A model generated the notes under the pieces. The model was not told where the DNA came from, did not search any database, and saw only the letters and a program-made list of their open reading frames with translations. Both the position numbers and the translations under genes were made by a program. A stretch of 64,000 bases of DNA from Nemertoderma westbladi (taxonomy: Eukaryota > Animalia > Xenacoelomorpha): NCBI GenBank assembly GCA_032718475.1, contig JAUCBJ010000013.1, forward strand, positions 1-64,000, read 5' to 3'. Of the stretch, positions 1-21,801 are shown one piece after another; within the stretch, counting starts at the first letter, position 1; the number at the start of each line of letters is the position of its first letter.

Positions 1-178
1 GGCTTTTACACTTTGAATAGAATTAATAAATACTACTTTTAAAATATATATATATAGAATTATATTCCCTAAATGCCGTGGATTTTCAAAATTTTATTTT
101 ATTCGAATTAACTTTGTAAAGATTGCTTTGAGTTCTCATTAGTATTGGTTCTATCTATTATGCATCTATCGGTCAAGT

Positions 179-262
179 GGTTCAGTAGCTCAGTTGGTAG
201 AGCGTTGGAAATTATATGTGTAGTAGGTATCGAGTTCGAATCCTAGTAAGTGCGAATTATTT
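179..262 (+). ncRNA. tRNA-derived Pol III type-2 promoter cassette inside the LTR (not a functional tRNA)
   Basis: A box TAGCTCAGTTGG (186-197) with intact D stem GCTC/GAGC, B box GTTCGAATCC and a T-run downstream. Anticodon and acceptor stems do not pair well. Confidence 0.7.
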
Positions 263-319
263 TGTGTGCAGAATTTCAACTCATTTAAATTAACCGCTAC
301 AAATTAATTGCATTTATCT

Positions 320-495
320 GTACCAATAAGGCTGTAGTTATTTGATTGTAACCAATGTAGTGCAAGTTATATATTAGCTGGACCAATAGCTATCTTTAAA
401 ACCTTGTTAGAACCCATAGAACAATCGAGAATTTTCTCGATTGATTGCGGCACAAATTTAGTATATAAAGGTGCGATTTGTTCATTAGTTATCAC
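320..495 (+). promoter_or_regulatory. Candidate Pol II promoter in LTR (three CCAAT boxes, TATA box)
   Basis: CCAAT at about 323, 352 and 383. TATATAAAG at about 463. Inr-like TTAGTT about 25 nt later. Confidence 0.45.
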
Positions 496-1969
496 TACTC
501 AATCTACCTAATACAATCATTTATTCTGTCGTGCTTAGTTTATTCTCAGATTACATTGTATTATAATTGTATCTTTGTAATAAAAGTCAGAAATACTAGT
601 CACATCTCAGCTTTTCTATCTGTTTTACTATGGTTTCACTACGGTGAACAAACTCAGGGACAGGATGGCCAGCTAAAGATCGGGCCGCAGCAATGAACGG
701 GAACATCACGGGAATGTAGACGAGAGACAACCCGCAATACCATCTAGTGTTATTCGCCCATCGCCTGAAAGGTTAGACAGCGTTCGATCCTTGCTACCTA
801 AGTATAAGACCAAAAGATCAAAGGTAGACGTAGTGACACGCTGTAAGCCCAAAATTACATCATAGGGACTGTACTGTCTTGATTCAGGGAAAACCGCAGT
901 AGACCTTCATATTCCTACGGGGGGGGAGGGAGAGAGAGCAGATACTAGTACGCAGATAGGACGTAGGCACACCGGTACAAGGCATACACATTGGTTAGGG
1001 TGCAGCAAACTGTACGCTTAACTCTTGCTAAGTACAGGTGTGTGTGCGACTATTTGCCGTACAACGGTGTCCGTTACATCAAAACTTGTAGGCTAGGGGG
1101 GTTGCTGTGTTTTCACCTGAATGGGGATTGTACCGTTCAGGCGGTAGGGCAGTTTACGCTAGGCGCAAATAAATTGAGGCTATCAGGGATATACTAACAT
1201 CTACCGTGTCCCCGCCAACGCCCTAATAGGAAGTTACCCGGACTACCTGGGTGACTAAAATTCTAGATAGGAGCCAGGATAGCTATTAGTACCCGTACGC
1301 CTACAGTAGTAAACTAACACATCTCTTCTTAGTATCAGGGACCTGGTACCTAAAATTGCCGAATTCTGGGCGTAGTATTAACCTTATGCCTGAATTTGAG
1401 TCCTGGAAATACGCAAGAGGGGAAGGAACCTTATCATTCGTGAGTATTGGACCTACAAGTTACAAAATTAGAATATTCGTAAAATGCACACTGCACCCAG
1501 TAATTATATATGTGAAGGAGCAAAACTGTTTTGACCGTTCAGAATTAACACACGCGCGTTAGAAATTATTTACACCTCGAAATATATAAAATTAACTTTC
1601 GTCCTTACTGCACTTTGCTCGCTAGTTAGACATCTCTAAATCTGCTCTGTACCTAGCTAGCGTCCCTTTGCCCAACCATATAAATCACACCGCGGCAAAG
1701 TATACGAGCCCCTTAGTCCGTCAGTGAGTCAGCCTGATTTTAGGATTCGCTGCGCGGGATTTTGTTTTATCGAAGTTTGTCTGCTCGTAGACTGTTTTCT
1801 GCCTCACCGGTTAAAAGAGATCGATACCGCAATATATTCGCTACTTGGGGTTTACTGTTTTGGTGAGAAGGTCGGATTTATGATTTGATTTACAAACTTT
1901 ACAGTAGGATATTGCAGGTATTGTTACCGTCTCTTCCGATAGTAGGAATAGGCGTATCTCTCCAATTTA

Positions 1970-1980
1970 GTAGGAATATG
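1970..1980 (+). promoter_or_regulatory. Non-tRNA primer-binding site (self-complementary to LTR 908-918)
   Basis: GTAGGAATATG directly abuts the LTR end and has no TGG. It is the exact reverse complement of CATATTCCTAC at 908-918. Confidence 0.75.
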
Positions 1981-3638
1981 TTTTACTGAACTACGGTTCG
2001 GTAGGACTAAAGTTATTTGAAAAATTTTGTATTTTGAGGTAAAAATTTTGTATTTGATTAGCTAAGTGCTAATTTTTTGAAATAAAATTTGATTTGAACC
2101 GCGTGTAAAATATTTTGGAATTGAATACCGGTGTTTAAAAGGGTTTAAATACCATATTGTACCGGTACAAAATTTTCGTAAAGTAAAACCTAACTCTTTT
2201 GTTTTTTCAGGATTCAGAACTCATTTCTAGACTGTAACGGGAGCAAGACCGTGTTTAGCAAGTTTGGGAGATAGATAACTCAACAACTTTGGTTGGGAAA
2301 ATCGCGTTTCGTCCGCAACGTTAAAAACGGAAAGGTTCACGTTCGGTTTGTATCTGGGAATCTGTTTTTCTGGAGAATTATTGGAGTGGGTGAGTTCGAA
2401 AAGTTGCATAAATAAGTTAGGCATTACCGTATTAGTTAAAATTATTGTGGGTTCCACTGTCTCAAGTATTTATGCATTCCGTATGATTTCTTTGTTCATT
2501 GCTGAATTAGTCCGTATTATTGTATTTAATTTACCTTTTGATAACGCATATCGTTATCCGATTTATTTGTTATAAAATTGGCCGCTAGGCTAATTTTATT
2601 ATATGTTTAATGTTTAATGTTTAATAGTTTGGGTATAAGAAAGCTAATGCTTATGGAACCCGTACACACCAAAAGAAAGTCCAACTGAAAGTAATTATAA
2701 CAGTACCGGTAAGTAATTAAGTATTGCGACCAATACCGACCATGTTTACGAAACAATGACAAAAACATATATAAAACAATTGGAACATAAAAGGACACAG
2801 TTAAATTAAAATAGTGTTCTTATAAAAATGGTTACTAATAAAATGTCTTGCTTGCTAAAGGGTTAAAGTGACGTCTGTAAAATCACGAGTATACACAGCA
2901 AATTACATAACAGTCGATAAAGTCAGATACATACACTAAAAATTACAAATATACATTAGAATTACTAAACAAATTCAATAAAATGACAGTCTATATAGTA
3001 TCACGAGTATACACAGAAAGTTACATATCAGTCGATAAAATCGGATACAAGTATATCGGTTAGGGCTAATATCGATAGTTTAAGGGTTGGAAATAAAATA
3101 TAAAATTAATTTAAAATATCAGATAATCCATAGCTATAAAAACAGTACGGTATGTAAAATAGATCAAGACATTTGAACACTTAAATTTACATGGATTAGC
3201 TAACACTACACGATGAGAAAATAAGTACACAGTTTAAGCTTTAAGGGTTAAAATAAAATATAAAATAAAATTAAAATATTCGATAAAATCGTTGTATAGA
3301 AACAGTTTGGTATGTAGAACTGATGGATTTAATTAAAATAAAATATTGCATATGAATTGGATTATTTAAGAAATAACAAATAACAGTTGCACCATTTGGG
3401 TCTATTTAAAAATACGAACGATTGGTAAGAGATTATACTGTAAGTTACATAAAAATATACATATACTTATTCCGTGACATTTATTTGCTGTAAAATTGGC
3501 CGTTTAGGCTAATTTTATCCATCTGCTATAAAATCGGCCGGTAGGCTAATTTTATATGACTGTAATTAGTACCGTTTTATACAAATACGGTAAACTCGAT
3601 ACTTTGACACTCACTTCACTTGACTTACAACTACCGAA

Positions 3639-6600
3639 ATGAGTGACAAACAAGACTATACGAAGAATACACAAACCGACTATGACTCATGTGACGCGGA
3701 TAAGTCAGCAGCGGAAGAACCACAGGGGAAGACTCGCGAGCCTACCGTACCTACACCGTGTGCGTCACCAGTACACCCAACGGGAGTACCGGATGCCGTA
3801 GTACGAGGCGACGGCAGGACCGAGGACTTTCTAACTGTTCCGCAACCTAGATACAGGGAAACGGACTTGGTAAGTTCAGCAGGAAGCACAGAAAGTGTGG
3901 TTAGAAGCGTCGGAGGTTACATGGCGCATATAACTAGGAGTATTGGAGAAGGCCAACGCATATTAGACGGGTTGACCGCTCCGATGTCTCGATTCGAGTT
4001 CTACACCCTCCAGGTTAGAGTACAGAGTAAAGTATATAAGTCCGTAGATAATCTAGTTGGCCTACAAGATCTAGCTAGACAGAGACAGGACATGGATACT
4101 CAACTTAGAATCCTCGAGAAACTAATGATCGCTAGAGAGAAACTGATTCAGTTTAAGTCGACGATTAGACAGATACAACAGGAACAAGCGGATCAGTTGT
4201 TAGGTGAGTCAGTTTCGGACGAATTATTACAGCCCGAGGAAGAACAGGAACTGTACCGACTGGATGGACAATTAAAACACCTGACGGACCACTTACGCAT
4301 GTGCGGCGAAGACGTCGGCGATTTGGAAACCGTGCCGGAATACACGAGGGAAACTTCATTCGCACAAATCGAATCGGCACCGGGAATACTAAATCAATCA
4401 TTGGTAAGTATTCGTAGCGAAATCTGCGAAGGAAGTATAGTCACGTCAGAAGTTGCTCGACAACAGCAGCAGTTCTACAGACAGCAACACGAGATAGAAG
4501 AACAAGCTCAACTTCTAATGATACAAACAGCAGTAGAGGAAGAGAAAATACGTGTTGCAAATGTAGCGAGAATCTCTCATCTGCAGGAACAAGCCGAACT
4601 CGAAGCGGCCGAAATGGAAAGGTTAGAGTTGGACATTGCCCAACAAGCGGCAGCGGCCGAGTTAGCGCAACGAACGGCAACAGCCGAGTTAGAGCGACAA
4701 ACGGCAGCGGCAGCGGCAGCGGCAGAGTTAGAGCGACAAACGGCAGCGGCCGAGTTAGCGCAACGAACGGCAACAGCCGAGTTAGAGCGACAAACGGCTG
4801 CCGCAGAGTTAGAGCGACAAACGGCTGCGGCAGAGTTAGAGCGACAAAGATTAGTTTCGGAAGCCAGAGTCGAGATGAAGACACGGCAAATAAAAGCCCA
4901 ACAAGCGATACGACAAGCAGAGTTCGAGGCGCAACAACAACAAACGGAACAACGAGAAAAGGAAGTTAAACTTCGTTTCGAACTTGAGAAAAGGGCGAGA
5001 GAATTAGCCGAAACCAAGGAAAATCTGGATCTTCTAGCCCGCGACCGATCGATGAGATCTCGTGACGGACATGATTTGGACCAGTTAGAGGTAAGACATC
5101 GCCAAATTCAGGAACGGAAGAAGGAAGGAAGCATAGGAGCACCCAGACGGGAACGACAATTAGTAAAAGACGTGTGTCAACGATTCCCACAGGTAACTCA
5201 TATGTTTGCACCGGTTACGACTAAGGAACCTGTTTCGATTGCGGGTAGTAGCGATATCTCTCCTATCCATGGTGTGACGGAACACAGGTTTGTTATTCCG
5301 GACGAGTTTATACCGCCAAGAGCAACGTCGTCGCCCATTCCGAAAGTCAAGGTAAGTAACCCACCGATTACAGATCGTAGTAGTTTATTAGTCGGACCTG
5401 CACTACTGACGACAAAACAGGTGAGTCCACCTTTGACACCTAAACCCGTTACGCACTATGCTTACCCCATGACATTTCGGCCTACAAGGCCTTTGGATTC
5501 AAACGCGGTCGTCCGACCACCATTCAATCAGTTTACGTCACAATCTACGACTTCGAGGAAGACTTGTGAGCCTACCGAACAACGGAGAACAGTGGAGACG
5601 CGACCATTCAACCAATTTACATCGCAATCTACGACTTCGAGGAAGACTTGTGAGCCTACCGAACAACGGAGAACAGTGGAGACGCGACCATTCAACCAAT
5701 TTACGTCACAATCTACGACTTCGAGGAAGACTTGTGAGCCTACCGAACAACGGAGAACAGTGGAGACGCGACCATTCAACCAATTTACATCGCAATCTAC
5801 GACTTCGAGGAAGACTTGTGAGCCTACCGAACAACGGAGAACAGTGGAGACGCGACCATTCAACCAATTTACGTCACAATCTACGACTTCGAGGAAGACT
5901 TGTGAGCCTACCGAACAACGGAGAACAGTGGAGACGCGACCATTCAACCAATTTACATCGCAATCTACGACTTCGAGGAAGACTTGTGAGCCTACCGAAC
6001 AACGGAGATCAGTGGACGATGTTCCGAAACGAGCCGTTAGAATTCGAACGACGCAACGGACGCGAGCACGTCGACCACCATATCCAGATGATAGTAGTAC
6101 TTCGAGCGAATCGGATTACCCGAAACGCGAGGTATTTAGAACAGGGGCGGCCGATGAATATAAACGCGAGCGTTCAGACAACTCCTTTGCAGACAATCCT
6201 CCACAGAATACACCAACACAGAAGGCGTTACAACCAACGGACGCAATTAGTACACAACAGTTCGCCGACATTCTGCGACCAGTTGTCAACAAGTTGGCTC
6301 AGATCGAGGAGCGTCTGGAGGAAGTTCAAACCGATAGTTCGAGGAACACCGAATTCGAACACAATAGACACCCGAAGGCACCACAAAGACCGGTACCTTC
6401 AAACCCCACATCGTATCAGGGAAAAGCGCCTAGAAGGGAGAACATCAACCAGGTTACCAACCAAGGACGCGAAACTCTGAACGTTGCCGAGGAGATAGCG
6501 AAATTCGCAGCCAGACAGGGATTGCCGGTACAACAACCACCGAAGTTTTCCGGTAGCTCAAAACACTGGCATACCTTCGTAGACTATATCGAATCCCAGA

Positions 6601-9600
6601 TCGCCGTGTGCGCCTTTACATCACGGGAGAAGTTCAATTACCTGCTCCAAACGTTGTCAGGAGAACCTAAACGTTTGGCGGAGACCTTCGTCGGTGTACC
6701 GGACGCTTTTGAACTAGCGTACGATCGTTTGACTTCGATATACGGAGGTACAGTGAGTATGGCCAGGTCAGTAATAGAGGAACTCTGTAAGGGAGGGGCT
6801 ATCACTAAACCAGTCGACTTACTAAAACTGGCTGACGAGATTAAGAACGCTATCACTACCTTAAGATCAATTGGACAACTTGATTACGGGAATACCCCTA
6901 CAGTCCTATTAAAGATAATAGGACGACTCCACCATCGACTTCGTCGGGAGTGGAGGAAGGTCGAATACCAGCGAGAGGAGCGAGGAGGATTCCTAAAATT
7001 AGAAGATGTGTACCTTTTAATATCCAGGGAGGCGGTAGTAGAAACTCGATCTAACTATACCGACCAGCACATCGTGGCAGAAGGAATCACACTGCCATCC
7101 TCCAACCGACAAAAACCCCAGACAACATCCACAAAGACGGCCACTTACGCCACACCGACGGAATCACGACAATTCTCAGACGGGAATAGAGTATCTGCGC
7201 CCATTGGAACGAAACAGACGAGACAGCAACTCAGCGCCGACTTCAACGGCTGCCAATACTGCGAACATTTAGGTAAGCGGTATATTGGTCACAAGTTACG
7301 AGGTTGTCGACAATTTCGCGAGTTGAACTCAGAAGAACGACGGCTGCAGATACGGCCACTGGACTCTTGTTGGCGGTGTACGCGACACGGACACGTCCGT
7401 AAGGATTGCCCAAATACCGACACTTGTCCATCCTGTGGACGCAACCACGACGGTCTGCTCCACACAGACAGCCACACGCCGACGAAACGCTTCGCCAGGG
7501 AACACCCGGAAGCAGCAGCGAGATGTGATGCGGCCTACCAAAAACGAGAATCGAAAACGACTCCGACTTTCGTGACCCATATAGAGGATTGCTTTTCAGA
7601 ACAATCCGGATTGTCGGACGAAGAATCAGAAGACGACGAATATTCAAATGGAGACGAACAACCGTCAATCGCGCTCCTGACCACTGACCAACTGAAGGGA
7701 TTCAGTGTAATCCCGATTAAAGTTACTGGCACAAAGGGGAGCAAAAGAATCTACGCGATTCTAGATTCAGCCTCATCTCACAGTTACGTGGATGAAAAGA
7801 TAGCTGACGTCGTAACGGATCTCAGACAAGGTAAACACGTCAGTTATACAGTAAGTAGTATGCATGGCCAGCGTGCAATACCAGTGACACGAGTTAAGTT
7901 GGACTTAGACTCTCTTCTTCCAAAATCGCAACACAGCGAGAGGGAGAGGTCTTTGTTGCCCTTTAGAGATCTAACCTTTGCGGCCACGAAGGACTTTAGT
8001 AACCTACTAGGTCCAGTGCCGGAACAATCTCTGGAGGACCGTAAGTATTTCAGACACCTTGGTGTACCCGAATGTCCTGTCAATTATAGATCGGTAGCAA
8101 TGCTGATCGGGACGGACCAATTCAACCTACATCAGGTGTGGGAAACCAGACCGTCGGCAGTTGTAGCAGGAAACGCATACGCCTGCAGAACGCCGATAGG
8201 GTGGTATACTCGAGCGCCTGTGCGCACACTAGACGTAAGTGACGAGGAAGACGATGTACAGAGTACATGTAGTTTATTAACTACAAATTCAATCCATTCC
8301 TTTTCACACGACGTGAACCATACTACGCTACAGTCGACAAAACATCACAGACGTGTAACTAGTATGATAAGTCACAAGGAGCAGCTAACCCACAAGGTGA
8401 GTTTAGAACTTGGGGAGAAGACGAATCAGCTAGAGATTCCATCGACGACAGATGATAGGCTTGCGAGTCTACCTACCCCAATAACTTCAACAGTGCCCAT
8501 CGATATCGACGATGACGCGTTGAAAATTCATCAGTTGGAACAAGCCGCCTTGGACAAAGAATTAACGGAGAAGACTATCAGGTGGTTAGAACAAGATACA
8601 GCTGAACCTGGTAGCTACGACCCTTGTATGTCGGAACAGGAGAAACAATCTCTAAAGATCATGGAGGATACTATCCGACAGACGGAGGACGGACATTACG
8701 AGGTGGGGATGTTATGGCGTAGCCAAAGTCCTAAACTTATAAATAACTACCCACTGGCTTTAAGACGTCTACACTCAATCCGACAACGTCTATTAAAGGA
8801 CGAGAAAGCCCATCTGCAGTACAACACTCAGATGAAGACATATTTGACAAAGGGATACGCTATCCGAATGACTAACCCGGAGCGAGTGACCGACCAGACA
8901 TACTACCTGCCACATCACTATGTGAGACATCCCGACAAACCAGATAAAGTACGCGTAGTCAATGACTGTGCGGCTCTGTTTGAGGGAATGTCCCTCAATA
9001 GTGAGTTGATGGATGGACCGAACATGAATAATTATCTTATGGGGGTGATTATGCGCTTCCGTCAGCGTCAAGTAGCCTTTACTTGCGACGTTGAAGCGAT
9101 GTTTCACCAAGTAAAAGCGTTAGAGCGAGACAGAGACAGTTTGCGGTTTCTCTGGTATCCGGAAGGGGACTTAAGTCTACCACCAGCGACTTACCAAATG
9201 CAAGTTCGCGTCTTCGGTGCCAGAGACAGCCCAAATTGTACGATGTACGCCTTGAAGCAAGCCGCTAGAGATCAGAAACATCTGTATGACCCAGAGATAA
9301 TTAGAATTGTAGAACGTGACTTTTACGTTGACGACGGATTACAGAGTTGCGACACAGTAGAACGTGCTACAACAGTAGCACATCAATTACGGGACTGCTT
9401 GGCGGGCGGAGGTTTTAACCTCACCAAATTCGCCTCAAACAGTGCCGAATTAGTTGACTCATTCGGAACTACTGAGCGTGGAGGTGGTGACATAGACCTA
9501 GAGTTCGAACCACTACCGACGACTAAGGTGTTGGGACTCTTTTGGGACCCAAACACAGACAACTTTCGAGTGAAGGTGAGACTGGACAGTCAAGGAAACA

Positions 9601-12600
9601 CACTGACCAAGAGATCATGCTTGTCAAAGTTGAGCCGATTGTTCGATCCGTTAGGATTCATCAGTCCAGTAATACTGCAAGCCCGCATTTATATGCGCAG
9701 TATATGGAAGGATGGACTAACGTGGGACGAGCCGATCTCATCAGACCAAGTGGACTTATGGAAGACCTGGGAGGCGGAATTGTCTTCGCTAGAGGATTAT
9801 TTCATACCCAGGGTTTACTTTCCATTACAGAGTACATTTCCTGACAACTTGGAACTACACTGTTTTTCTGACGCCAGTGACAACGGTTTTGGTGTGGCAG
9901 CGTATTTGCGCAGACAAGTAGAATCAGACGAGTTCGATGTTTCGCTCATTACTTCTAAGGCTAAGACCATGCCTACTAAGTATATGACGACACCACGAGC
10001 CGAGCTACAAGCCGCAACCCTGTCAACCACCATCGTGAACCTCATACAGACAGAACTACAGTCGAGTTTACAGATATTTTATTGGACTGACGCGACGTTG
10101 GTTTTATTTTACATAAACAACGACACACTCGAATTCAAGACATTCGTAGCTAACCGTCGCGCGGAAATTCTAGACCGTTCGATAAAAGAGGATTGGCGAC
10201 ATTGTCCCGGACCACAAAACCCAGCTGATATTGCGTCGCGAGGAATGATGCCTGAGGAATTCTGTAAACCGGAGAACAAAGAGTTTTGGCAACACGGACC
10301 CCAGTTCTTGCAGAAATCGACACAAGATTGGCCTCCGTTATACGACAACAAGTCCAACACCATTCCTAAGGACGCCGAAATCAAGAAACCAAAAAAGGGG
10401 AAGACAAAGAAAAAGACAACGGCGACAAAACTCAAGAAAAAACCGAAGGCGAAATGGAAGGATATAACTTCAAAGGTCAAGAGAGGAAGACTTGCGAGCC
10501 TTTCTACACCAGACATATCGCCAGACGGTCAACCAGACACGTTACTAGACAGCCAACCAGACATTTTGCCAGACATATCACAAAATGTTCCACCAGACGT
10601 TAGTAACGCACTGACAAACAGTAAAGCCGCAGTTTCCCTATTGGAGCGGCCTTCTATTGACAAACAACCAGATACGTTACCAGACGTATCGCCAGACACA
10701 CTACTAGACAGTCGACTAGACACTAGTAATGTATTGACTAACAATAAAGCCGCAGTTTCCCTATTGGAGCGGCCTTGTATTGACAAACTACCAATTTTGA
10801 CACACTTGAGCAACCATAAGCACGGTGAAACCTCATGTATTACAGATGTGGGTAGTACCTACGCTAATGTAAATACAGGTGTTACTTTGCGCTCAAGAGA
10901 CATACCGAACCTGCAACCTACGTTGAGACCTGGGATTAATGTCGGCAGGAAAATAAGTTTACCGAAACCTGCTGACCCCATAGAGTTCAAACCACCATTA
11001 ACGATCGACTTACAAAGTACCGACGATCAAGGTAAGAAGACAAAGAAGGACAAATTACTTGTAGACCCCGACGGATCAACAGTCAACAAGGGAATACTTA
11101 CCGGCGGACCCGTGGGCCCTTCTAGTAATTCAAAACCTTCCAAAATTTCCATTGACTTACCTGATGACGTCACAAATACTCACGTCGACCGGATTGTAAA
11201 CCTAACAGATTCTTGGTCAAGCGCTTGCCGAAAACTAGCGTGGATTGTACGTTTTGTACAATACGTTAAAGGCAAACGTGACTTTACACGTCGACTTACA
11301 TTGACTGAGATTGACAGATGTGAAATTAAATTAATTCACCATTACCAATTGCGATATTTCGCGCGCGAATTCACATCTATAAATCAAGGTCAACCAATCA
11401 AGTCGTCACCAATACTGAGTTGGAGTCCGATTATTTATAATGGCTTAATTTGTCATAAATCTCGGCTTCAAAACATTGACTTTAACACAAACTTTAGGTA
11501 CCCAATAATAATACCGCAACATCACGAACTACAACGTGCAATGATACTGGACGCACATTTACATCTGAAACACGCTGGAAGACACCACTGTCTTTCCTAC
11601 TTACGTACTAGATTTGTATTAATTAGACCCAGTAAAGCATTAAGTTCAGTGACACGTACGTGTATTATTTGTAAAAAGGTACATTCTAGAATAGGTACCC
11701 AAGAAATGAGTGAACTACCACAAGCACGACTTCAAGCATTCAGACCACCTTTTACAGAGACTGGAATTGATTGCTTTGGTCCCATACATACGAAACGTGG
11801 ACGTATACTAGTAAAACGCTGGGGACTGATTTTCACATGTATGTCCAGTAGGGCAGTTCACATTGAACGTGTGATGGATCTTTCCACCAACGCGTTTATA
11901 CTAGCACTGCGGCGATTTATCGCTAGACGCGGACTAGTAAAATGCTTGTACTCAGACCAAGGGACAAACTTTGTTGGTGCTCGGAATGAGATTGCTAGAG
12001 CCTTTAAGAAATTAGATCACGATCAAATCTCGAACGAACTGCAACCTCACAAGATTGTTTGGAAGTTCAATCCTCCAGATAGTCCTTGGAGAGGCGGAGT
12101 CTGGGAGAGATTGATTAGATCTATAAAGACAGCCATGGCAAAGGTCATTCCAGTAAACCACATATTAACAGACGACCAACTGACAACATTGTTTGTTGAA
12201 ATCGAGGCAATACTAAATACTAGACCAATAGTATTAGTACCCGATGACAAACAATCTCAGTTTGCTTTAACACCGGCACACCTGCTTATGCAGGCACCGA
12301 CGACATTAACGCCGATTTCTATTCCAATAGAAAGCGACAGTTACGGTAGAAAAGCGTGGAAAATCACGCAACTACTAGCTAACAAATTCTGGGAAATATG
12401 GCAAAACCATTATTTGCCCTCTATTTCTGCCAGAACAAACTGGTACAATAACACCCGCGCATTAAAGCCGGGAGATCACGTGCTGTTGGCAGAAGTGAAT
12501 CTAAAAAGACGCTTCTGGATAACAGGTGTCATTTTAGCCACACATCCATCTATGGATGGAGTGACAAGAACTGTGACGGTACGAACAATTGACGGTCGTA

Positions 12601-12692
12601 CAGTAGACAGACCGACTCAACGTCTCGTACTTCTTGAAGAGACTCGTAACGAGTCTGGAGACTACAAATCTCCACCTAATACTAGTAAATAA
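3639..12692 (+). CDS. BEL/Pao gag-pol polyprotein (3017 aa)
   Basis: Coiled-coil N-terminus and DUF1759-like gag. BEL triple Cys/His motif (CQYC..H..C, CWRC..GH...C, CPSC...H..LLH). Protease LDSAS, RT FYVDD, RNase H FSDAS/PRAEL/NPAD. Integrase H-H-C-C, GIDCFGP, SDQGTNF, GGVWER. Confidence 0.97.
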   Translation: MSDKQDYTKNTQTDYDSCDADKSAAEEPQGKTREPTVPTPCASPVHPTGVPDAVVRGDGRTEDFLTVPQPRYRETDLVSSAGSTESVVRSVGGYMAHITRSIGEGQRILDGLTAPMSRFEFYTLQVRVQSKVYKSVDNLVGLQDLARQRQDMDTQLRILEKLMIAREKLIQFKSTIRQIQQEQADQLLGESVSDELLQPEEEQELYRLDGQLKHLTDHLRMCGEDVGDLETVPEYTRETSFAQIESAPGILNQSLVSIRSEICEGSIVTSEVARQQQQFYRQQHEIEEQAQLLMIQTAVEEEKIRVANVARISHLQEQAELEAAEMERLELDIAQQAAAAELAQRTATAELERQTAAAAAAAELERQTAAAELAQRTATAELERQTAAAELERQTAAAELERQRLVSEARVEMKTRQIKAQQAIRQAEFEAQQQQTEQREKEVKLRFELEKRARELAETKENLDLLARDRSMRSRDGHDLDQLEVRHRQIQERKKEGSIGAPRRERQLVKDVCQRFPQVTHMFAPVTTKEPVSIAGSSDISPIHGVTEHRFVIPDEFIPPRATSSPIPKVKVSNPPITDRSSLLVGPALLTTKQVSPPLTPKPVTHYAYPMTFRPTRPLDSNAVVRPPFNQFTSQSTTSRKTCEPTEQRRTVETRPFNQFTSQSTTSRKTCEPTEQRRTVETRPFNQFTSQSTTSRKTCEPTEQRRTVETRPFNQFTSQSTTSRKTCEPTEQRRTVETRPFNQFTSQSTTSRKTCEPTEQRRTVETRPFNQFTSQSTTSRKTCEPTEQRRSVDDVPKRAVRIRTTQRTRARRPPYPDDSSTSSESDYPKREVFRTGAADEYKRERSDNSFADNPPQNTPTQKALQPTDAISTQQFADILRPVVNKLAQIEERLEEVQTDSSRNTEFEHNRHPKAPQRPVPSNPTSYQGKAPRRENINQVTNQGRETLNVAEEIAKFAARQGLPVQQPPKFSGSSKHWHTFVDYIESQIAVCAFTSREKFNYLLQTLSGEPKRLAETFVGVPDAFELAYDRLTSIYGGTVSMARSVIEELCKGGAITKPVDLLKLADEIKNAITTLRSIGQLDYGNTPTVLLKIIGRLHHRLRREWRKVEYQREERGGFLKLEDVYLLISREAVVETRSNYTDQHIVAEGITLPSSNRQKPQTTSTKTATYATPTESRQFSDGNRVSAPIGTKQTRQQLSADFNGCQYCEHLGKRYIGHKLRGCRQFRELNSEERRLQIRPLDSCWRCTRHGHVRKDCPNTDTCPSCGRNHDGLLHTDSHTPTKRFAREHPEAAARCDAAYQKRESKTTPTFVTHIEDCFSEQSGLSDEESEDDEYSNGDEQPSIALLTTDQLKGFSVIPIKVTGTKGSKRIYAILDSASSHSYVDEKIADVVTDLRQGKHVSYTVSSMHGQRAIPVTRVKLDLDSLLPKSQHSERERSLLPFRDLTFAATKDFSNLLGPVPEQSLEDRKYFRHLGVPECPVNYRSVAMLIGTDQFNLHQVWETRPSAVVAGNAYACRTPIGWYTRAPVRTLDVSDEEDDVQSTCSLLTTNSIHSFSHDVNHTTLQSTKHHRRVTSMISHKEQLTHKVSLELGEKTNQLEIPSTTDDRLASLPTPITSTVPIDIDDDALKIHQLEQAALDKELTEKTIRWLEQDTAEPGSYDPCMSEQEKQSLKIMEDTIRQTEDGHYEVGMLWRSQSPKLINNYPLALRRLHSIRQRLLKDEKAHLQYNTQMKTYLTKGYAIRMTNPERVTDQTYYLPHHYVRHPDKPDKVRVVNDCAALFEGMSLNSELMDGPNMNNYLMGVIMRFRQRQVAFTCDVEAMFHQVKALERDRDSLRFLWYPEGDLSLPPATYQMQVRVFGARDSPNCTMYALKQAARDQKHLYDPEIIRIVERDFYVDDGLQSCDTVERATTVAHQLRDCLAGGGFNLTKFASNSAELVDSFGTTERGGGDIDLEFEPLPTTKVLGLFWDPNTDNFRVKVRLDSQGNTLTKRSCLSKLSRLFDPLGFISPVILQARIYMRSIWKDGLTWDEPISSDQVDLWKTWEAELSSLEDYFIPRVYFPLQSTFPDNLELHCFSDASDNGFGVAAYLRRQVESDEFDVSLITSKAKTMPTKYMTTPRAELQAATLSTTIVNLIQTELQSSLQIFYWTDATLVLFYINNDTLEFKTFVANRRAEILDRSIKEDWRHCPGPQNPADIASRGMMPEEFCKPENKEFWQHGPQFLQKSTQDWPPLYDNKSNTIPKDAEIKKPKKGKTKKKTTATKLKKKPKAKWKDITSKVKRGRLASLSTPDISPDGQPDTLLDSQPDILPDISQNVPPDVSNALTNSKAAVSLLERPSIDKQPDTLPDVSPDTLLDSRLDTSNVLTNNKAAVSLLERPCIDKLPILTHLSNHKHGETSCITDVGSTYANVNTGVTLRSRDIPNLQPTLRPGINVGRKISLPKPADPIEFKPPLTIDLQSTDDQGKKTKKDKLLVDPDGSTVNKGILTGGPVGPSSNSKPSKISIDLPDDVTNTHVDRIVNLTDSWSSACRKLAWIVRFVQYVKGKRDFTRRLTLTEIDRCEIKLIHHYQLRYFAREFTSINQGQPIKSSPILSWSPIIYNGLICHKSRLQNIDFNTNFRYPIIIPQHHELQRAMILDAHLHLKHAGRHHCLSYLRTRFVLIRPSKALSSVTRTCIICKKVHSRIGTQEMSELPQARLQAFRPPFTETGIDCFGPIHTKRGRILVKRWGLIFTCMSSRAVHIERVMDLSTNAFILALRRFIARRGLVKCLYSDQGTNFVGARNEIARAFKKLDHDQISNELQPHKIVWKFNPPDSPWRGGVWERLIRSIKTAMAKVIPVNHILTDDQLTTLFVEIEAILNTRPIVLVPDDKQSQFALTPAHLLMQAPTTLTPISIPIESDSYGRKAWKITQLLANKFWEIWQNHYLPSISARTNWYNNTRALKPGDHVLLAEVNLKRRFWITGVILATHPSMDGVTRTVTVRTIDGRTVDRPTQRLVLLEETRNESGDYKSPPNTSK
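4645..4850 (+). repeat. In-frame 27-bp-type repeats (AAAELERQT) in gag
   Basis: Repeated GAGTTAGMGCRACRAACGGC units encoding an Ala/Glu helix. Confidence 0.85.
5517..6020 (+). repeat. 84-bp tandem repeat x6 in gag (28-aa unit)
   Basis: GGAAGACTTGTGAGCCT recurs at 5557, 5641, 5725, 5809, 5893 and 5977. Protein unit RPFNQFTSQSTTSRKTCEPTEQRRTVET. Confidence 0.95.
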
Positions 12693-13582
12693 TTAGGAGT
12701 TTACAAATAGATTTCCACGTACCTGTACACCGTAGTAAGGACAGCGGTAGAATTCCATTGTCTTTATATGTGAACATTGAGGGTAGTACCCTTATGTGTC
12801 ACATAGGAGCGGGATTCGTAGGTATAAGAAATGGAATTCTACTTGGAACTCACAATATTGAGACATTTTCGAAATTTTAGACAATCCATTTGGATTTGAA
12901 AAATTTTTAAAATTTTCTCCAGTAAATAGATTTCAGGGTACAGTCGGGTGGAACTTAAAATTAGAGAAACAAGAGAGGAAGACTTGCGAGCCTTTCTTAA
13001 AATTTTTAATTAAATTTTACACGGTCTTGTTTCAATAAGTTACGTCAATAAATAGACTCCCCTATATTTATTACTAATTCTTGATTGCTTATTTTCTGAT
13101 AATAGTTTGGGATCAAAAAGTGAGTATTTTAGACTCACAGCCAGTTTAGCCCAAATTCGTTTTATTTCGGCAAAAAATTTTAGATAAGAAGCAGCGTGTC
13201 ATTAAAGAAACCTTAGACCTTAGGCTATGGGTAGGAGGTTAGAGCGTTGTCGAGCCCAAAGGGCAGACGAAACTCTCACGTCTCCTCACAACTAACCACA
13301 AACTCTGTTGTATTCCCTCTAGTAGTAATGATTATGTAACTACACCCTAATTATGGAGAAAGGGATACAAGGAGAGCCGAGATGGGGATATGATATCCAA
13401 GAGGAGGCAGCAGCGCCATTCGAAAGATTTGGAGCCAAGGATTATACTATATTCGGTATAAAGGAATTATCAGAAAGTACAGCGAAGCTCGCAAAGACAG
13501 CAATGCCTTTACTCGAGCAGGATTTAGTATATTTCGAGACGTGTATCTTCGCTGTGCGGGATCTCTTATCGAAAGACCATCT

Positions 13583-15055
13583 ATGTTTACATTGTTACCC
13601 TATGAAGGAGAACGTATCGTGGAGATTATGGATGAATCACGGCAGACGCGCGCGCCTATCGGTCACCTTGGTGATGAATTCGAAGTAACTACTACGATCG
13701 CCGACGATCCTTTAGAGGAACTTCTTGAGATAGAAAGGAACCTCCCGAAGAAATCTCAGACGGAGATTCGACAACTTGAAGCAACAGATGCTATAGTTTG
13801 CATACAACCTTCAGAAACCTACCAACCCATAGACCCAGATGATTACGATTATAGTATGGGAGGAAGCGCTCGACCGATTGGAGATCTTATATACGAACGA
13901 GTGTGGTACCCTGCTAATACGATGTGTAGTAAATGTGGCGTCGCTGGACATCATATGGCAAAGTGCAGTGGAAAACACATTACTACGACTCAGCTAATCT
14001 GTGGATGGTGTGGGGATCAAGGGTCTCATACCTTTTATACTTGCTGGAGATTTATGGCTCAATGTACTTACTGCAATATAAAGGGACATCGAGCATCTGA
14101 ATGCCAACTGAGAGACATACCTTATGAACACGAATCTGTAAAACTCGTGAGGAAGTTATTTGATGAGTGGGAAGATTTGGCCGACGAACATGTATCGGCA
14201 CAAAGAAGACGGTTTCCGATGAGAGCGCATCTCGGATTTTGGGCGGTAAATCCTCAAACGATGATGTCGGAAGGATATATCTCCGCTATGCCCCAGTATG
14301 ACGAACTTATCGAGGTTGTCGATATTTTGCCCCACGACAGCGGATTTCGAGTGGTGCGCGAGTATCTGTTACAGATTCACCCAGATAACAAAAACACGTG
14401 GAATTTTCAGAAAGTCGTAAATCGTATCACGTATGGTGAATTTGATCGTTTCCGAACCGAAAAGCGGAATAAAGGAGCTTGGTTAACCGTCGCATGGGCG
14501 TACCGAGCCGCGTTTTACCATAAACGTATACGAGCGAGCGTATTCGAGGAAGAGGAGGTCCTAGAGGCGACGAATATATCAGCCACTCCGGTTGCGCCGT
14601 CTGCACGTCACCCTCGGGAGGACGGGCAGGGTAGGATCATACGGGTCCAGAAAGTGGGCCAACAATTGAAGAAAATTATTAATGTGGAAGAACGCAAGGG
14701 AGTTGAGCCGACTATTCGAGTTACTCGGGATACGGTATCACTTCCAAGAGAACCGGTAGGAGGATCGGGACATACACCAGCTGATCAACAGGGGGCGCAA
14801 GCTACTCTTGGGTCTGCGTCGTCCGCCTTTCGCGAGTTCCCAGACGTTCTACCAACTGTAGCGACAACTGATCGGTCACGAGGAATTGGTCGAGGTTTTG
14901 GGATGCCAAATAGACGAATTTGCGAGGAAATAGTTGCACCGTCTCTCAACGTCCCAAGTAAACCAGTGACTCGCCCCATTAGTCCCATATCGCGAGCAAA
15001 GTCACCTGTGCGCAGTTTTCGAGGACGCGGCAGGGCTCGATCTACTAAGCGATAA
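13583..15055 (+). CDS. Accessory ORF2 of the BEL element, with three tandem CCHC-type zinc knuckles
   Basis: Frame open from 13394; first ATG at 13583. Knuckles CSKCGVAGHHMAKC, CGWCGDQGSHTFYTC, CTYCNIKGHRASEC and a basic RG-rich tail. No signal peptide or TM seen. True start uncertain. Confidence 0.8.
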   Translation: MFTLLPYEGERIVEIMDESRQTRAPIGHLGDEFEVTTTIADDPLEELLEIERNLPKKSQTEIRQLEATDAIVCIQPSETYQPIDPDDYDYSMGGSARPIGDLIYERVWYPANTMCSKCGVAGHHMAKCSGKHITTTQLICGWCGDQGSHTFYTCWRFMAQCTYCNIKGHRASECQLRDIPYEHESVKLVRKLFDEWEDLADEHVSAQRRRFPMRAHLGFWAVNPQTMMSEGYISAMPQYDELIEVVDILPHDSGFRVVREYLLQIHPDNKNTWNFQKVVNRITYGEFDRFRTEKRNKGAWLTVAWAYRAAFYHKRIRASVFEEEEVLEATNISATPVAPSARHPREDGQGRIIRVQKVGQQLKKIINVEERKGVEPTIRVTRDTVSLPREPVGGSGHTPADQQGAQATLGSASSAFREFPDVLPTVATTDRSRGIGRGFGMPNRRICEEIVAPSLNVPSKPVTRPISPISRAKSPVRSFRGRGRARSTKR

Positions 15056-15900: not shown

Positions 15901-16088
15901 AAACCGTATATTTTATGCACGATAATATCCTGTTTTCATGGAGCGGTATAGAATTATATTCCCTAAATGCCGTGGATTTTAAAAAATTTTATTTTATTCG
16001 AATTAACTTTGTAAAGATTGCTTTGAGTTCTCATTAGTATTGGTTCTATCTATTATGCATCTATCGGTCAAGTGGTTCAGTAGCTCAG

Positions 16089-18026
16089 GCAGAATACCTA
16101 AGGACTGTGGTAAATCTAAGGTTGAGAGTAGGCTGGAGCTAAGGTCGCGAGTAGCGTGGAGGTGAGGAAGGGAGTAGCTTGCTTAGGTGAATGGTAGGAA
16201 AAACCCGGCTTTCTATTGGCTGCTATAAATAGCTTACATAGTTTAAACTATATAGTAGTTCCCCTGGTTGAGGAGATGGGAAATCATGTACTGGAATAGG
16301 CTGCTAGGTTAACCCAACAAAACAACTAAACTTTTAATTAATTATTGATTACAGGCAAGGATTAGTAAGGAATTTTTAAATTTCATTAAAGGTTTACGTT
16401 TAATTAAACGAGTAGTATCAGTTAATCGTGTTATATTGACAAATAAATTATCATATTACAAATATATTATCTAGTTTTCTAGACTTATGAGTAAATAATA
16501 AACTTTCAATAATGTGTCATGAGTTCAAAGGCATCCACGAGTACAGTGTTTGGATACGGGAATTAGCAAAGGAGACCTGCCATTTAGCGGAGAAGGGGGG
16601 GGGGGGGGGTCATTTTTGGGGGTTTTAGAGCATGTAGTTGTAGGCCTAGGTTTTTGTACTACATGGTGTTGATCGTGTGGGTAGACCACCGAACAGTTGC
16701 GAATTTTAGACTAAAGAAGACAATTGTTTAAAATTTATTGTTTATTTTTGGAAATCCGATACTCACATTGCACATATAGAGTAAGATATACAGTATATTG
16801 TATAATTGCAATATTACAAGTTAAGTTACAATAATACTTTGGGCAATGGCGTGGCTAGTATTATAGCCCAATGTATTGTCTGGGAGTGCCGGGCAGGTAG
16901 GGGTGGTGTGCAGTGCTTGCAAAAAAAAAGGGGGGGGGGGATATTACTATTATGTGAATTGTGAGGTGTGAGATTGTTACTGTTGTTGTTGATAGGGAAA
17001 TAATTAATTATCCTAAGTTAATCTCCAGCGCAATCAATTGTTTCACTGGAGTTCCGATGCTGATCCAGGTATATAAAACTAAACTAATGAGTCGAGATAG
17101 GAAATACATAAAATATAAAATATTGGATGGAAAAGGTTATGGAAAATTGGTAAGATCTATGTTTTATTGATTGTTTACAGTGTACTTTAATTTAATATTT
17201 TAGAAGGTGACCTATTTCGAAAAGGGTACTGTATTTTCGATTTTTTATGTTTTACGTCAGTAGAGGAATCAGAGTTCCATATCGTTGGCCCTGAAAAATA
17301 ATTATTAGTGTTTGGAAATTATTGGAAAACTAATGGATCTTTGAGATGAGCAATGCGCATATCCTTGCCTTAAGGGCTGTTTACGCGTGGCAACTTTCTC
17401 GGCAACTTTTAGAGCAAACCAGGTTGCCGATCAAGTTGCTAAGTGTAAACACGTAAGTTGCTGAAAAAAATTGCCGTAAAATTTGCTCAACTTTTACGGC
17501 AACTTGAAGGAATTTGCGTTGGGGAATTAAAGCGGGATAATCAGATGTAATTATCAAAAACTAGCTAGTAGATAAAATGACCCACTATTTTACAGTTCCG
17601 GCCAAGTTGCTGGTAAAGTTGCCACGTGTAAACAGCGATTAAATTAAGTTGCTCCAAAAAAAGTTGCTAGTTTGCCGAGAAAGTTGATCTAAAAGTTTCC
17701 ACGTGTAAACAGACCTTTAGGGGTAGAATAGCTTACGTTGATAGTTAGACGTAAAGGATAATATATTATCTGTTGAATAAGTTAAATTTGTATAAGTTAC
17801 TGTATAATGTACAATGCTCTATATGTATATTACAATTTCTCATACTGTATAATATTAATATTGATATTTCAATATTTACAAAGTATAATAATTCTAATAA
17901 AAATATGTATGGTAGAAAAATACATTATTGCGTTTTTCCTTTCTCTCTGCGTTTTTCCTCCCTCTCTGGTCATTTTTCCGCGTAATTCTTTTCCCCCCTT
18001 GTTTACAGTCTGTTTTACCCCAGCCC
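16089..18026. mobile_element. Non-coding 1.94 kb element inserted in the tRNA A box, copy 1 (Dada-like)
   Basis: Flanked by TAGCTCAG (16081-16088, 18027-18034). No long TIR. Imperfect subterminal inverted repeat GGACTGTGGTAAA (16102-16114) / TTTACCCCAGCCC (18014-18026). Family assignment is inference. Confidence 0.75.
17373..17716. mobile_element. PIF/Harbinger (Tourist-like) MITE
   Basis: 25-bp TIR AGGGCTGTTTACGCGTGGCAACTTT with 3 mismatches. TTA TSD. Confidence 0.85.
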
Positions 18027-18034
18027 TAGCTCAG

Positions 18035-19970
18035 GCAGAATACCTAAGGACTGTGGTAAATCTAAGGTTGAGAGTAGGCTGGAGCTAAGGTCGCGAGTAG
18101 CGTGGAGGTGAGGAAGGGAGTAGCTTGCTTAGGTGGATGGTAGGAAAAACCCGGCTTTCTATTGGCTGCTATAAATAGCTTACATAGTTTAAACTATATA
18201 GTAGTTCCCCTGGTTGAGGAGATGGGAAATCATGTACTGGAATAGGCTGCTAGGTTAACCCAACAAAACAACTAAACTTTTAATTAATTATTGATTACAG
18301 GCAAGGATTAGTAAGGAATTTTTAAATTTCATTAAAGGTTTACGTTTAATTAAACGAGTAGTATCAGTTAATCGTGTTATATTGACAAATAAATTATCAT
18401 ATTACAAATATATTATCTAGTTTTCTAGACTTATGAGTAAATAATAAACTTTCAATAATGTGTCATGAGTTCAAAGGCATCCACGAGTACAGTGTTTGGA
18501 TACGGGAATTAGCAAAGGAGACCTGCCATTTAGCGGAGAAGGGGGGGGGGGGGTCATTTTTGGGGGTTTTAGAGCATGTAGTTGTAGGCCTAGGTTTTTG
18601 TACTACATGGTGTTGATCGTGTGGGTAGACCACCGAACAGTTGCGAATTTTAGACTAAAGAAGACAATTGTTTAAAATTTATTGTTTATTTTTGGAAATC
18701 CGATACTCACATTGCACATATAGAGTAAGATATACAGTATATTGTATAATTGCAATATTACAAGTTAAGTTACAATAATACTTTGGGCAATGGCGTGGCT
18801 AGTATTATAGCCCAATGTATTGTCTGGGAGTGCCGGGCAGGTAGGGGTGGTGTGCAGTGCTTGCAAAAAAAAAGGGGGGGGGGGATATTACTATTATGTG
18901 AATTGTGAGGTGTGAGATTGTTACTGTTGTTGTTGATAGGGAAATAATTAATTATCCTAAGTTAATCTCCAGCGCAATCAATTGTTTCACTGGAGTTCCG
19001 ATGCTGATCCAGGTATATAAAACTAAACTAATGAGTCGAGATAGGAAATACATAAAATATAAAATATTGGATGGAAAAGGTTATGGAAAATTGGTAAGAT
19101 CTATGTTTTATTGATTGTTTACAGTGTACTTTAATTTAATATTTTAGAAGGTGACCTATTTCGAAAAGGGTACTGTATTTTCGATTTTTTATGTTTTACG
19201 TCAGTAGAGGAATCAGAGTTCCATATCGTTGGCCCTGAAAAATAATTATTAGTGTTTGGAAATTATTGGAAAACTAATGGATCTTTGAGATGAGCAATGC
19301 GCATATCCTTGCCTTAAGGGCTGTTTACGCGTGGCAACTTTCTCGGCAACTTTTAGAGCAAACCAGGTTGCCGATCAAGTTGCTAAGTGTAAACACGTAA
19401 GTTGCTGAAAAAAATTGCCGTAAAATTTGCTCAACTTTTACGGCAACTTGAAGGAATTTGCGTTGGGGAATTAAAGCGGGATAATCAGATGTAATTATCA
19501 AAAACTAGCTAGTAGATAAAATGACCCACTATTTTACAGTTCCGGCCAAGTTGCTGGTAAAGTTGCCACGTGTAAACAGCGATTAAATTAAGTTGCTCCA
19601 AAAAAAGTTGCTAGTTTGCCGAGAAAGTTGATCTAAAAGTTTCCACGTGTAAACAGACCTTTAGGGGTAGAATAGCTTACGTTGATAGTTAGACGTAAAG
19701 GATAATATATTATCTGTTGAATAAGTTAAATTTGTATAAGTTACTGTATAATGTACAATGCTCTATATGTATATTACAATTTCTCATACTGTATAATATT
19801 AATATTGATATTTCAATATTTACAAAGTATAATAATTCTAATAAAAATATGTATGGTAGAAAAATACATTATTGCGTTTTTCCTTTCTCTCTGCGTTTTT
19901 CCTCCCTCTCTGGTCATTTTTCCGCGTAATTCTTTTCCCCCCTTGTTTACAGTCTGTTTTACCCCAGCCC
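18035..19970. mobile_element. Non-coding 1.94 kb element inserted in the tRNA A box, copy 2
   Basis: Near-identical to copy 1. Flanked by TAGCTCAG (18027-18034, 19971-19978). Confidence 0.75.
19317..19660. mobile_element. PIF/Harbinger MITE (copy inside unit 2)
   Basis: Same TIRs and TTA TSD as 17373-17716. Confidence 0.85.
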
Positions 19971-21801
19971 TAGCTCAGTTGGTAGAGCGTTGGAAATTAT
20001 ATGTGTAGTAGGTATCGAGTTCGAATCCTAGTAAGTGCGAATTATTTTTTGTGCAGAATTTCAACTCATTTAAATTAACCGCTACAAATTAATTGCATTT
20101 ATCTGTACCAATAAGGCTGTAGTTATTTGATTGTAACCAATGTAGTGCAAGTTATATATTAGCTGGACCAATAGCTATCTTTAAAACCTTGTTAGAACCC
20201 ATAGAACAATCGAGAATTTTCTCGATTGATTGCGGCACAAATTTAGTATATAAAGGTGCGATTTGTTCATTAGTTATCACTACTCAATCTACCTAATACA
20301 ATCATTTATTCTGTCGTGCTTAGTTTATTCTCAGATTACATTGTATTATAATTGTATCTTTGTAATAAAAGTCAGAAATACTAGTCACATCTCAGCTTTT
20401 CTATCTGTTTTACTATGGTTTCACTACGGTGAACAAACTCAGGGACAGGATGGCCAGCTAAAGATCGGGCCGCAGCAATGAACGGGAACATCACGGGAAT
20501 GTAGACGAGAGACAACCCGCAATACCATCTAGTGTTATTCGCCCATCGCCTGAAAGGTTAGACAGCGTTCGATCCTTGCTACCTAAGTATAAGACCAAAA
20601 GATCAAAAGGTAGACGTAGTGACACGCTGTAAGCCCAAAATTACATCATAGGGACTGTACTGTCTTGATTCAGGGAAAACCGCAGTAGACCTTCATATTC
20701 CTACGGGGGGGGAGGGAGAGAGAGCAGATACTAGTACGCAGATAGGACGTAGGCACACCGGTACAAGGCATACACATTGGTTAGGGTGCAGCAAACTGTA
20801 CGCTTAACTCTTGCTAAGTACAGGTGTGTGTGCGACTATTTGCCGTACAACGGTGTCCGTTACATCAAAACTTGTAGGCTAGGGGGGTTGCTGTGTTTTC
20901 ACCTGAATGGGGATTGTACCGTTCAGGCGGTAGGGCAGTTTACGCTAGGCGCAAATAAATTGAGGCTATCAGGGATATACTAACATCTACCGTGTCCCCG
21001 CCAACGCCCTAATAGGAAGTTACCCGGACTACCTGGGTGACTAAAATTCTAGATAGGAGCCAGGATAGCTATTAGTACCCGTACGCCTACAGTAGTAAAC
21101 TAACACATCTCTTCTTAGTATCAGGGACCTGGTACCTAAAATTGCCGAATTCTGGGCGTAGTATTAACCTTATGCCTGAATTTGAGTCCTGGAAATACGC
21201 AAGAGGGGAAGGAACCTTATCATTCGTGAGTATTGGACCTACAAGTTACAAAATTAGAATATTCGTAAAATGCACACTGCACCCAGTAATTATATATGTG
21301 AAGGAGCAAAACTGTTTTGACCGTTCAGAATTAACACACGCGCGTTAGAAATTATTTACACCTCGAAATATATAAAATTAACTTTCGTCCTTACTGCACT
21401 TTGCTCGCTAGTTAGACATCTCTAAATCTGCTCTGTACCTAGCTAGCGTCCCTTTGCCCAACCATATAAATCACACCGCGGCAAAGTATACGAGCCCCTT
21501 AGTCCGTCAGTGAGTCAGCCTGATTTTAGGATTCGCTGCGCGGGATTTTGTTTTATCGAAGTTTGTCTGCTCGTAGACTGTTTTCTGCCTCACCGGTTAA
21601 AAGAGATCGATACTGCAATATATTCGCTACTTGGGGTTTACTGTTTTGGTGAGAAGGTCGGATTTATGATTTGATTTACAAACTTTACAGTAGGATATTG
21701 CAGGTATTGTTACCGTCTCTTCCGATAGTAGGAATAGGCGTATCTCTCCAATTTAATATAGAATATAATATATTGTACAATATATATTGTACTATTTATA
21801 G

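Follow-up and report, generated by a model that had tools for sequence, protein, structure and literature searches.

The jumping gene at 53–21755 of the 64-kb stretch of DNA analysed here (the window) is an intact, recently inserted BEL/Pao retrotransposon, and its reverse transcription is likely to be primed by RNA of its own LTR and not by a tRNA, in whichever geometry the two RNA segments meet. This reading of the sequence, which a preliminary description had put forward as a tRNA-independent, self-priming BEL/Pao lineage, is supported by variants at partner positions of the putative primer and primer binding site (PBS) within the family, and by pairing of the PBS with the element's own LTR at eight of 14 distant BEL loci. 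One geometry, in which an internal segment of the unspliced RNA would be cut after C918, takes a little over half of that likelihood; for it the complementarity, its place at the LTR end, the matching alleles and the splice are observed, and we infer the cut, the extension and the RNA ends by analogy with Tf1.

The anatomy of the element was established from the window and from four sequencing runs: X1 and X4, which are DNA-like with flat cover, X3, whose label as DNA is in question, and X5. The features of the element, with their immediate flanks, are as follows.

48–52, plus strand: 5' target site duplication ATATA, the same five bases as at 21756–21760
53–1969, plus strand: 5' LTR of 1917 bp, from self-BLAST, alignment and loose contig ends
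186–260, plus strand: tRNA- or SINE-like head inside the LTR with A-box-like and B-box-like motifs, a reading of the sequence
462–470, plus strand: TATA box, from sequence, with a start predicted near 494
579–584, plus strand: first AATAAA, 5' of the primer segment, a candidate signal from sequence
772–2210, plus strand: GT..AG intron containing the primer segment and the PBS, from a splice joint in X3
897–903, plus strand: predicted arm of a side helix with 1982–1988 (RNAduplex, computed without null or variant support)
908–918, plus strand: candidate self-primer CATATTCCTAC, with 3' end AC and variant 910 T>C
919–945, plus strand: purine run after the primer, of which 925–931 is predicted to pair with 1957–1963 (RNAduplex, without null)
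1168–1173, plus strand: second AATAAA, 3' of the primer, a candidate signal for the end of the genomic RNA
1942–1950, plus strand: decoy within the LTR, a 9-nt copy of the PBS that serves as an internal control
1970–1980, plus strand: candidate primer binding site GTAGGAATATG, without TGG, at offset 0 from the LTR, with variant 1978 A>G
2211–2389, plus strand: likely second exon, bordered at 2390 by a GTGAGT donor; an X3 contig covering 2209–2389 stops exactly there
3624–12692, plus strand: open gag-pol frame of 3022 aa, first ATG at 3639, in the order Gag-PR-RT-RH-IN
13394–15055, plus strand: extra open frame of 553 aa with three CCHC zinc knuckles, 3' of pol
15940–15946, plus strand: short polypurine tract GGAGCGG, linked to LTR base 53 by a loose end in X5
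15947–16088, plus strand: first part of the 3' LTR, 98.6% identical to 53–193
16089–19978, no strand assigned: a 1.94-kb insert, present twice in tandem, that interrupts the A-box-like motif of the 3' LTR
19979–21755, plus strand: second part of the 3' LTR, including the primer copy at 20694–20704
21756–21760, plus strand: 3' target site duplication ATATA, repeating 48–52

The 5' and 3' LTRs differ at five of 1917 positions. Their start had earlier been placed near 186, and alignment, loose contig ends and the target duplication move it to 53, making the LTR longer than first taken. A start at 186 is an artefact of the nested insert in the 3' LTR, and starts at 319 or just behind the purines of 919–940 were rejected because the loose ends and the target duplication give 53, a base that loose contig ends confirm in both X3 and X5. 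At the other end, the 5' and 3' copies diverge after 1969 and 21755, respectively, and three X3 contigs enter other flanks at that point. The LTR termini read TA...TA instead of TG...CA. The last LTR bases, CCAATTTA, are similar to the CA plus spacer that precedes the PBS of the relatives described below, as if the spacer before the PBS had been absorbed into the LTR of this element. The family is abundant, with thousands of contigs covering 2.4 kb in runs X1 and X4.

ARAGORN found no tRNA genes in the window; neither it nor an Rfam search of 1–3700 returned a match for the tRNA-like head, whose box-like motifs were assigned from the box consensus. Within the copy of this head in the 3' LTR, the two units of the insert are 99.8% alike, TAGCTCAG occurs three times, at the joints, and neither clear terminal inverted repeats nor a transposase frame was seen. 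Tandem insertion of 1.94-kb units into a tRNA-like target recalls, by description, the Dada transposons, which have 6–7 bp duplications and no terminal inverted repeats according to the available portion of their account (PMC3706591).

By its proteins the element belongs to BEL/Pao. The gag-pol product matches DUF1759, Peptidase_A17 (E 9e-42) and DUF5641 above the cut-off and Integrase_H2C2 below it; the motifs YVDD (RT), CFSDAS and YSDQGT can be placed, and protease, RT, RNase H and integrase follow in BEL/Pao order. An LTR pair, a polypurine tract, albeit of only 7 nt, and a short target duplication are also present, and Pol is of the BEL/Pao type, not that of a Ty3/gypsy chromovirus (Tf1/sushi group). 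Among the matches listed, the closest protein relatives (1662–5289 aa) are at most 44% identical over RT-RH, those with names come mostly from marine invertebrates, and PF05380 is carried by the 120 relatives; a search of viral contigs gave no relative. The extra 553-aa frame has no Pfam match, and its Atlas matches, at most 0.76, serve as a lead only; its zinc knuckles suggest that it might encode a nucleic-acid chaperone or packaging factor.

What the element does not carry is a tRNA PBS of the BEL/Pao type: as the preliminary description had pointed out, no TGG lies within the first bases after 1969. The same description had paired the 11 bases that follow the LTR with a segment inside it, and CATATTCCTAC is indeed the exact reverse complement of GTAGGAATATG. 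Within the window the former occurs only at 908 and 20694, and the latter only at 1970. With 11 bp and no offset from the LTR end, the pairing falls within the rule applied to Tf1-type elements, an own-LTR complement of at least 10 bp to a site 0–5 bp behind the LTR. When the LTR is shuffled with its dinucleotides preserved, at least 11 nt are reached at offset 0 in 13 of 20,000 trials and at offsets 0–3 in nine of 5,000, and of 33 control windows from the element's own leader, with splice-junction matches allowed, one reaches 11 and two pass the rule. The match on its own is thus suggestive, not decisive. The decoy at 1942–1950 gives a duplex of −12.2 kcal/mol, compared with −15.8 for the candidate PBS.

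Around this duplex, the side helix proposed earlier between GGAGA..AGATAC and the LTR end holds insofar as purines downstream of the primer are predicted to pair with the LTR end, and fails in its register, since RNAduplex picks 925–931 with 1957–1963 and not AGATAC with GTATCT; it adds a second helix, 897–903 with 1982–1988, likewise predicted without a null. Two other primer arrangements were rejected. A TGG at 630 could have been the fossil of a tRNA site, but the LTR extends as far as 1969, and the TGG is missing from an X4 variant; a primer built by splicing was set aside for this element, where the 11-mer is contiguous and no such joint is listed.

If the PBS is copied from the LTR, variants at paired positions should accompany one another. 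Position 910 carries T>C at 22.3% of depth in X1 and 26.7% in X4 (among the variants listed, 40 of 137); the other 97 may include further minor variants within 908–918. Its pairing partner is 1978, for which A>G was forecast before the look-up and then found, at 25.8% in X1 and 23.2% in X4. In the variant listing for 880–2010 (likeness 90, share at least 10%; all 19 rows, at 18 places), it is the sole substitution within 1850–2010; position 910 is missing from that listing, apparently since it lies near the edge of the stretch. Base 1950 of the decoy, which could also pair with 910, shows no variant at 10% or above. The joint change of primer and PBS expected of a Tf1-type element is therefore seen at matched shares in X1 and X4, with the two positions unphased, as no contig covers both; the shares are summed contig depth, not copy number, and the window itself may derive from X1 or X4. 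In X3 the shares are unequal, 94% at 910 and 31% at 1978, from few contigs, and X5 has no cover at 801–1040 and 1921–2160 and is hence uninformative on both.

The energies of the four pair states at 910/1978 are −15.8 (T/A), −15.8 (T/G), −11.5 (C/A) and −17.7 kcal/mol (C/G). Because A>G at 1978 on its own still allows a U-G pair, at −15.8, this change is not by itself forced. Plus-strand synthesis copies the 3' bases of the primer back into the PBS, so that a host primer tends to fix the PBS; with a self-primer, changes in the LTR pass into it. The matched variants at 910 and 1978 fit a self-primer of this kind. A low-depth variant in X1 and X4 has the last 90 LTR bases (1878–1969) swapped for 26 other letters, and this removes the side-helix partner.

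The preliminary description had looked to related BEL families for co-variation of PBS and LTR, and this is borne out at eight of 14 loci, which pair with different letters. Scanning metagenome contigs yielded 79 BEL loci, none of which resembles 53–2400 at the DNA level, and the test set comprises the 14 with both LTR ends marked by divergence, chosen by eye; circular-overlap contigs and contigs cut inside an LTR were scanned separately and stand outside this count. At the eight loci, a PBS 2–4 nt behind the 5' LTR complements 10–15 nt of the same element's LTR, contiguously in L001 (whose two LTRs are only 74% alike), L018 and L024, and across a GTAAG..AG LTR intron in L013, L019, L036, L048 and L054. 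Under the same rule, only one of 462 leader windows in these loci matches, or four of 528 when two window elements are added. Cross-pairing one locus with another gives four matches in 240, two of them between L036 and L054, which share a PBS. The eight loci are 39–75% identical to one another in RT-RH and 38–42% to the element studied here. With no first letter imposed, the PBS begins GT in all eight and in this element, so the primer ends in AC; at least seven different PBS sequences are represented, each matching its own LTR or an LTR splice junction.

The remaining six loci failed the rule. L049 has a TGG at +5, in a site at 55–75 of that locus, as expected of a tRNA-primed element, and lies near the self-type L013 and L019 in the tree (weak support); self-type and TGG-type priming seem, from these sequences, to coexist in related elements. 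L069 is a near match with one G-U, and L025, L027, L076 and L078 show no own-LTR match, their ends being unlike LTR ends. An anchored scan of 14 unpaired loci, run without a null, returned five matches, of which one was already counted and one belongs to the L036 family, and added L008, L009, L034 and L042; a wider scan of 31 unpaired regions returned four (L002, L012, L047 and L073), with about 1.7 expected. In a tree of 80 RT-RH rows and 11 named proteins, none dropped and none a named reference of the BEL/Pao clades (Sailor: Sinbad, Sparrow, Surcouf; Suzu; Tas; Pao; BEL), the self-type loci are spread over many branches, and this element sits on a long, weakly supported one. Deep support is low and no order of events is supported.

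The window holds other elements. In a second BEL element (55623–63137), whose gag is split over several frames and which is itself truncated by a tandem repeat at 63236, a TATA box, a splice donor and acceptor and AATAAA are followed by a primer/PBS complement: CACA and then GTAACTAAAG at 57082–57091, the complement of 56905–56914 (10 nt; 11 of 300 shuffles, with its LTR end inferred). A third LTR element (50677–54950, minus strand) has 1.19-kb LTRs that are 98% alike, TG...CA ends, a CGGGA duplication, a 1.9-kb interior without a long frame and a polypurine tract like that of the BEL/Pao element at 53–21755. Directly behind its 5' LTR, too, lies an 11-mer complementary to the element's own LTR (27 of 5,000 shuffles), which begins with AT in place of GT and is almost a palindrome. 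Elsewhere in the window lie two blocks of a complex 450-base satellite (28700–33800 and 43200–45800), an intronless tetraspanin-like frame (27078–27923, minus), a glycine-rich repeat frame (24916–26133, minus) and an RT fragment (22642–23280).

How the primer of the element at 53–21755 would be delivered depends on the layout of its transcript. Run X3 behaves like RNA: it holds a splice joint and an A>G-rich contig, and its cover is uneven compared with the flat X1 and X4. The joint, 769>2209 with a cut at +2, removes 772–2210 and is carried at a depth of 250 by one contig of X3, and by none in X1, X4 or X5. The intron has a branch-like motif and a pyrimidine tract before its AG, and one X3 contig starts at the 2211 acceptor and ends at the GTGAGT donor at 2390, for which no acceptor was seen. 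The A>G-rich contig, over 1099–1799, has 94 differences, largely A>G on the plus strand, the pattern that A-to-I hyper-editing of double-stranded LTR RNA would leave.

If X3 is RNA, splicing from 771 to 2211 places the start of transcription upstream of 772, in agreement with the TATA box at 462 and its predicted start. The caveat raised earlier, that the 11-mer may not be the 5' end of the RNA, therefore stands: this transcript starts upstream of 908, and in it the primer is not at the RNA 5' end as it is in a Tf1-type element. Since the intron holds both segments, the spliced form lacks primer and PBS. The first pair of TATA box and AATAAA predicts an R region of about 494–602, which has no sequence behind the primer. 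X3 contigs pass 1969 into the flanks, implying read-through of the first AATAAA if X3 is RNA.

Because the X3 transcript starts upstream of 772, the primer in this element is probably internal, unlike that of Tf1. In the geometry that we favor, 908–918 of the unspliced RNA would anneal to 1970–1980. By analogy with Tf1, RNase H of the element would separate C918 from G919, and the resulting 3'-OH would belong not to an 11-mer but to a long 5' fragment, of about 425 nt given a start near 494. RT would then extend from C918 and copy 1969 back to 919 (1051 bases), after which the cDNA would jump to the 3' LTR copy. The jump would need a genomic RNA that passes the first AATAAA and reaches beyond the equivalent of 919, either to the second AATAAA at 1168 or by read-through; an R region of 494–602 would not permit it, which speaks against the internal geometry. 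Copying of the primer during plus-strand synthesis would overwrite the PBS with LTR sequence, moving LTR variants into it, and the spliced RNA would serve as message only. A broader proposal is that a wide BEL/Pao group uses an AC-ended primer from its own RNA, often built by host splicing, and that in this family the primer lies deep in a 1.9-kb LTR, primer and PBS share one intron, the choice of splicing sorts message from genome, and the priming end is on a long internal RNA. To this combined proposal we give slightly less than an even chance.

A different geometry for self-priming, included in the likelihood given to self-priming as a whole, is possible, though we hold it only tentatively. 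The 3' LTR copy of the primer (20694–20704) could lie at, or be cut near, the 3' end of the RNA; a primer could act in trans, supplied by another genomic RNA or by read-through RNA of solo LTRs; or a second start near 832 (TATAAG at 803) could give a shorter genomic RNA that begins past the splice donor. Such arrangements suit the finding that the spliced transcript does not begin with the 11-mer, and a 3'-copy or trans primer would leave the template unbroken to the RNA 5' end. X3 depth, a poor measure of transcript level when taken from contigs, is 775–885 over LTR positions 922–1509 and 40–80 over the part of the intron behind the PBS, which would fit a large number of transcripts made of LTR alone. 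Folding also favors the duplex when the RNA starts at 880 or later: its probability is 0.9–1.0 in folds from 880 or 908, and 0.0 in folds from 494 (494–2250) or of 772–2210, where 900–959 pairs locally with 1050–1104 and the flanking helices of RNAduplex are likewise absent, a point against the internal geometry, although folds of 1.1–1.8 kb are unreliable in either direction. Against these geometries, TATAAG at 803 is a weak match whose start near 832 is predicted only, and the relatives appear, from their sequences, to have a transcript layout closer to that of Tf1. In L013 a TATA box lies 31 nt upstream of the primer, and a poly(A) hexamer is found downstream of the primer in five of the eight relatives and upstream in none, with none found in the other three.

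It is improbable that the duplex is instead an RNA structure for packaging, dimerisation or control of the 772–2210 splice, with a protein or an unrelated RNA end as the primer. Compensatory change does reflect selection on pairing and not on priming as such; the duplex would close most of the intron into a loop, with side helices predicted; and the dense A>G changes over 1099–1799 in X3 are typical of double-stranded RNA. A structural role would leave unexplained why the duplex ends exactly at the LTR boundary, and 2–4 nt from it in eight relatives, why the AC end is fixed, and what primes an element in which no tRNA site remains.

Still less probable is priming by a host tRNA half or other small RNA, with the LTR match masking the site or representing a captured copy. 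Anticodon-loop primers do exist in Copia-type elements, according to the available portions of two accounts (PMC6317226; PMC10886601). A host primer should nonetheless keep the PBS constant, and here a second PBS allele at about one quarter of depth matches the LTR allele, while the PBS sequences of the relatives each follow their own LTR or LTR splice junction. A chance match is very improbable. In its favor are the 1.9-kb length of the LTR, the degenerate versions of the PBS near the LTR end (1904–1915 and 1942–1950) and a cruder shuffle that gives 11 nt at offsets 0–5 in 31 of 5,000 trials, but chance accounts neither for the matched variants at partner positions nor for eight of 14 relatives against one of 462 controls. 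Self-priming by the LTR's own RNA remains the likely reading.

If true, self-priming in BEL/Pao would extend the trait to a third superfamily, BEL/Pao being the sole LTR superfamily described as tRNA-primed throughout. It would also bear on whether self-priming preceded tRNA priming; self-priming has been discussed as possibly ancestral (PMC3601003). What is new here is a partner allele that was forecast and then found, a metagenome set with controls, and an intron enclosing both primer and PBS. Natural partner alleles in one high-copy family allow a direct test of pairing, and if primers are internal or splice-built, annotation tools that seek tRNA sites or a primer at the RNA start would miss such elements.

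The preliminary description knew of no described case, and our literature search, outside which lay most subscription papers, Repbase notes and supplements, gave no account of self-priming in BEL/Pao. The ICTV treatment of Belpaoviridae describes a PBS of 18 nt that complements the 3' end of a host tRNA, tRNA-Arg or -Gly, together with LTRs of 0.2–1.2 kb and genomes of 4.2–10 kb, and calls BEL/Pao replication poorly understood (PMC8742986). The available main texts of three BEL/Pao surveys contain no discussion of a PBS or primer (PMC3118150; PMC6238403; PMC554778), and that of another mentions the PBS only generically (PMC8220671). With Belpaoviridae the element shares a single gag-pol frame, the PR-RT-RH-IN order, Pfam domains, LTRs, a polypurine tract and a 5-bp target duplication; it differs in the absence of a tRNA site, in its 1.9-kb LTRs with TA...TA ends, in a length of about 17.8 kb once the nested insert is left out, and in its additional zinc-knuckle frame. 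The Helenus TRIMs, as far as their available description goes, likewise have tRNA-like box motifs in the LTR, and are short, non-autonomous and tRNA-primed, unlike this element (PMC10886601).

The closest mechanistic parallel is with Tf1 and Tf2 of Schizosaccharomyces pombe. In Tf1, RNase H cleaves the RNA between bases 11 and 12, and the first 11 bases then serve as the primer (PMC7175516; PMC5006619; PMC5443660). These elements likewise have no tRNA site, 11 LTR-RNA bases complement the PBS, and the cut after the 11th paired base is the Tf1 model. Flanking helices are predicted for them; in the element described here RNAduplex predicts such helices and whole-RNA folds from 494 or 772 lack them. 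The Tf1/sushi group belongs to Ty3/gypsy, whereas the element described here is BEL/Pao and no member of that group. Self-priming has also been predicted for the plant TAR lineage (Houba, Osr-1; Ty1/copia) and the Tcn1 clade, by requiring that a site 0–5 bp behind the LTR pair over at least 10 bp with the 5' LTR (PMC6317226). The element described here has a complement of this kind; those in plants are Copia elements or chromoviruses, and their self-priming is a prediction only. The available text on them describes no splice-built or intronic primer; in the BEL/Pao element at 53–21755, primer and PBS both lie within an intron.
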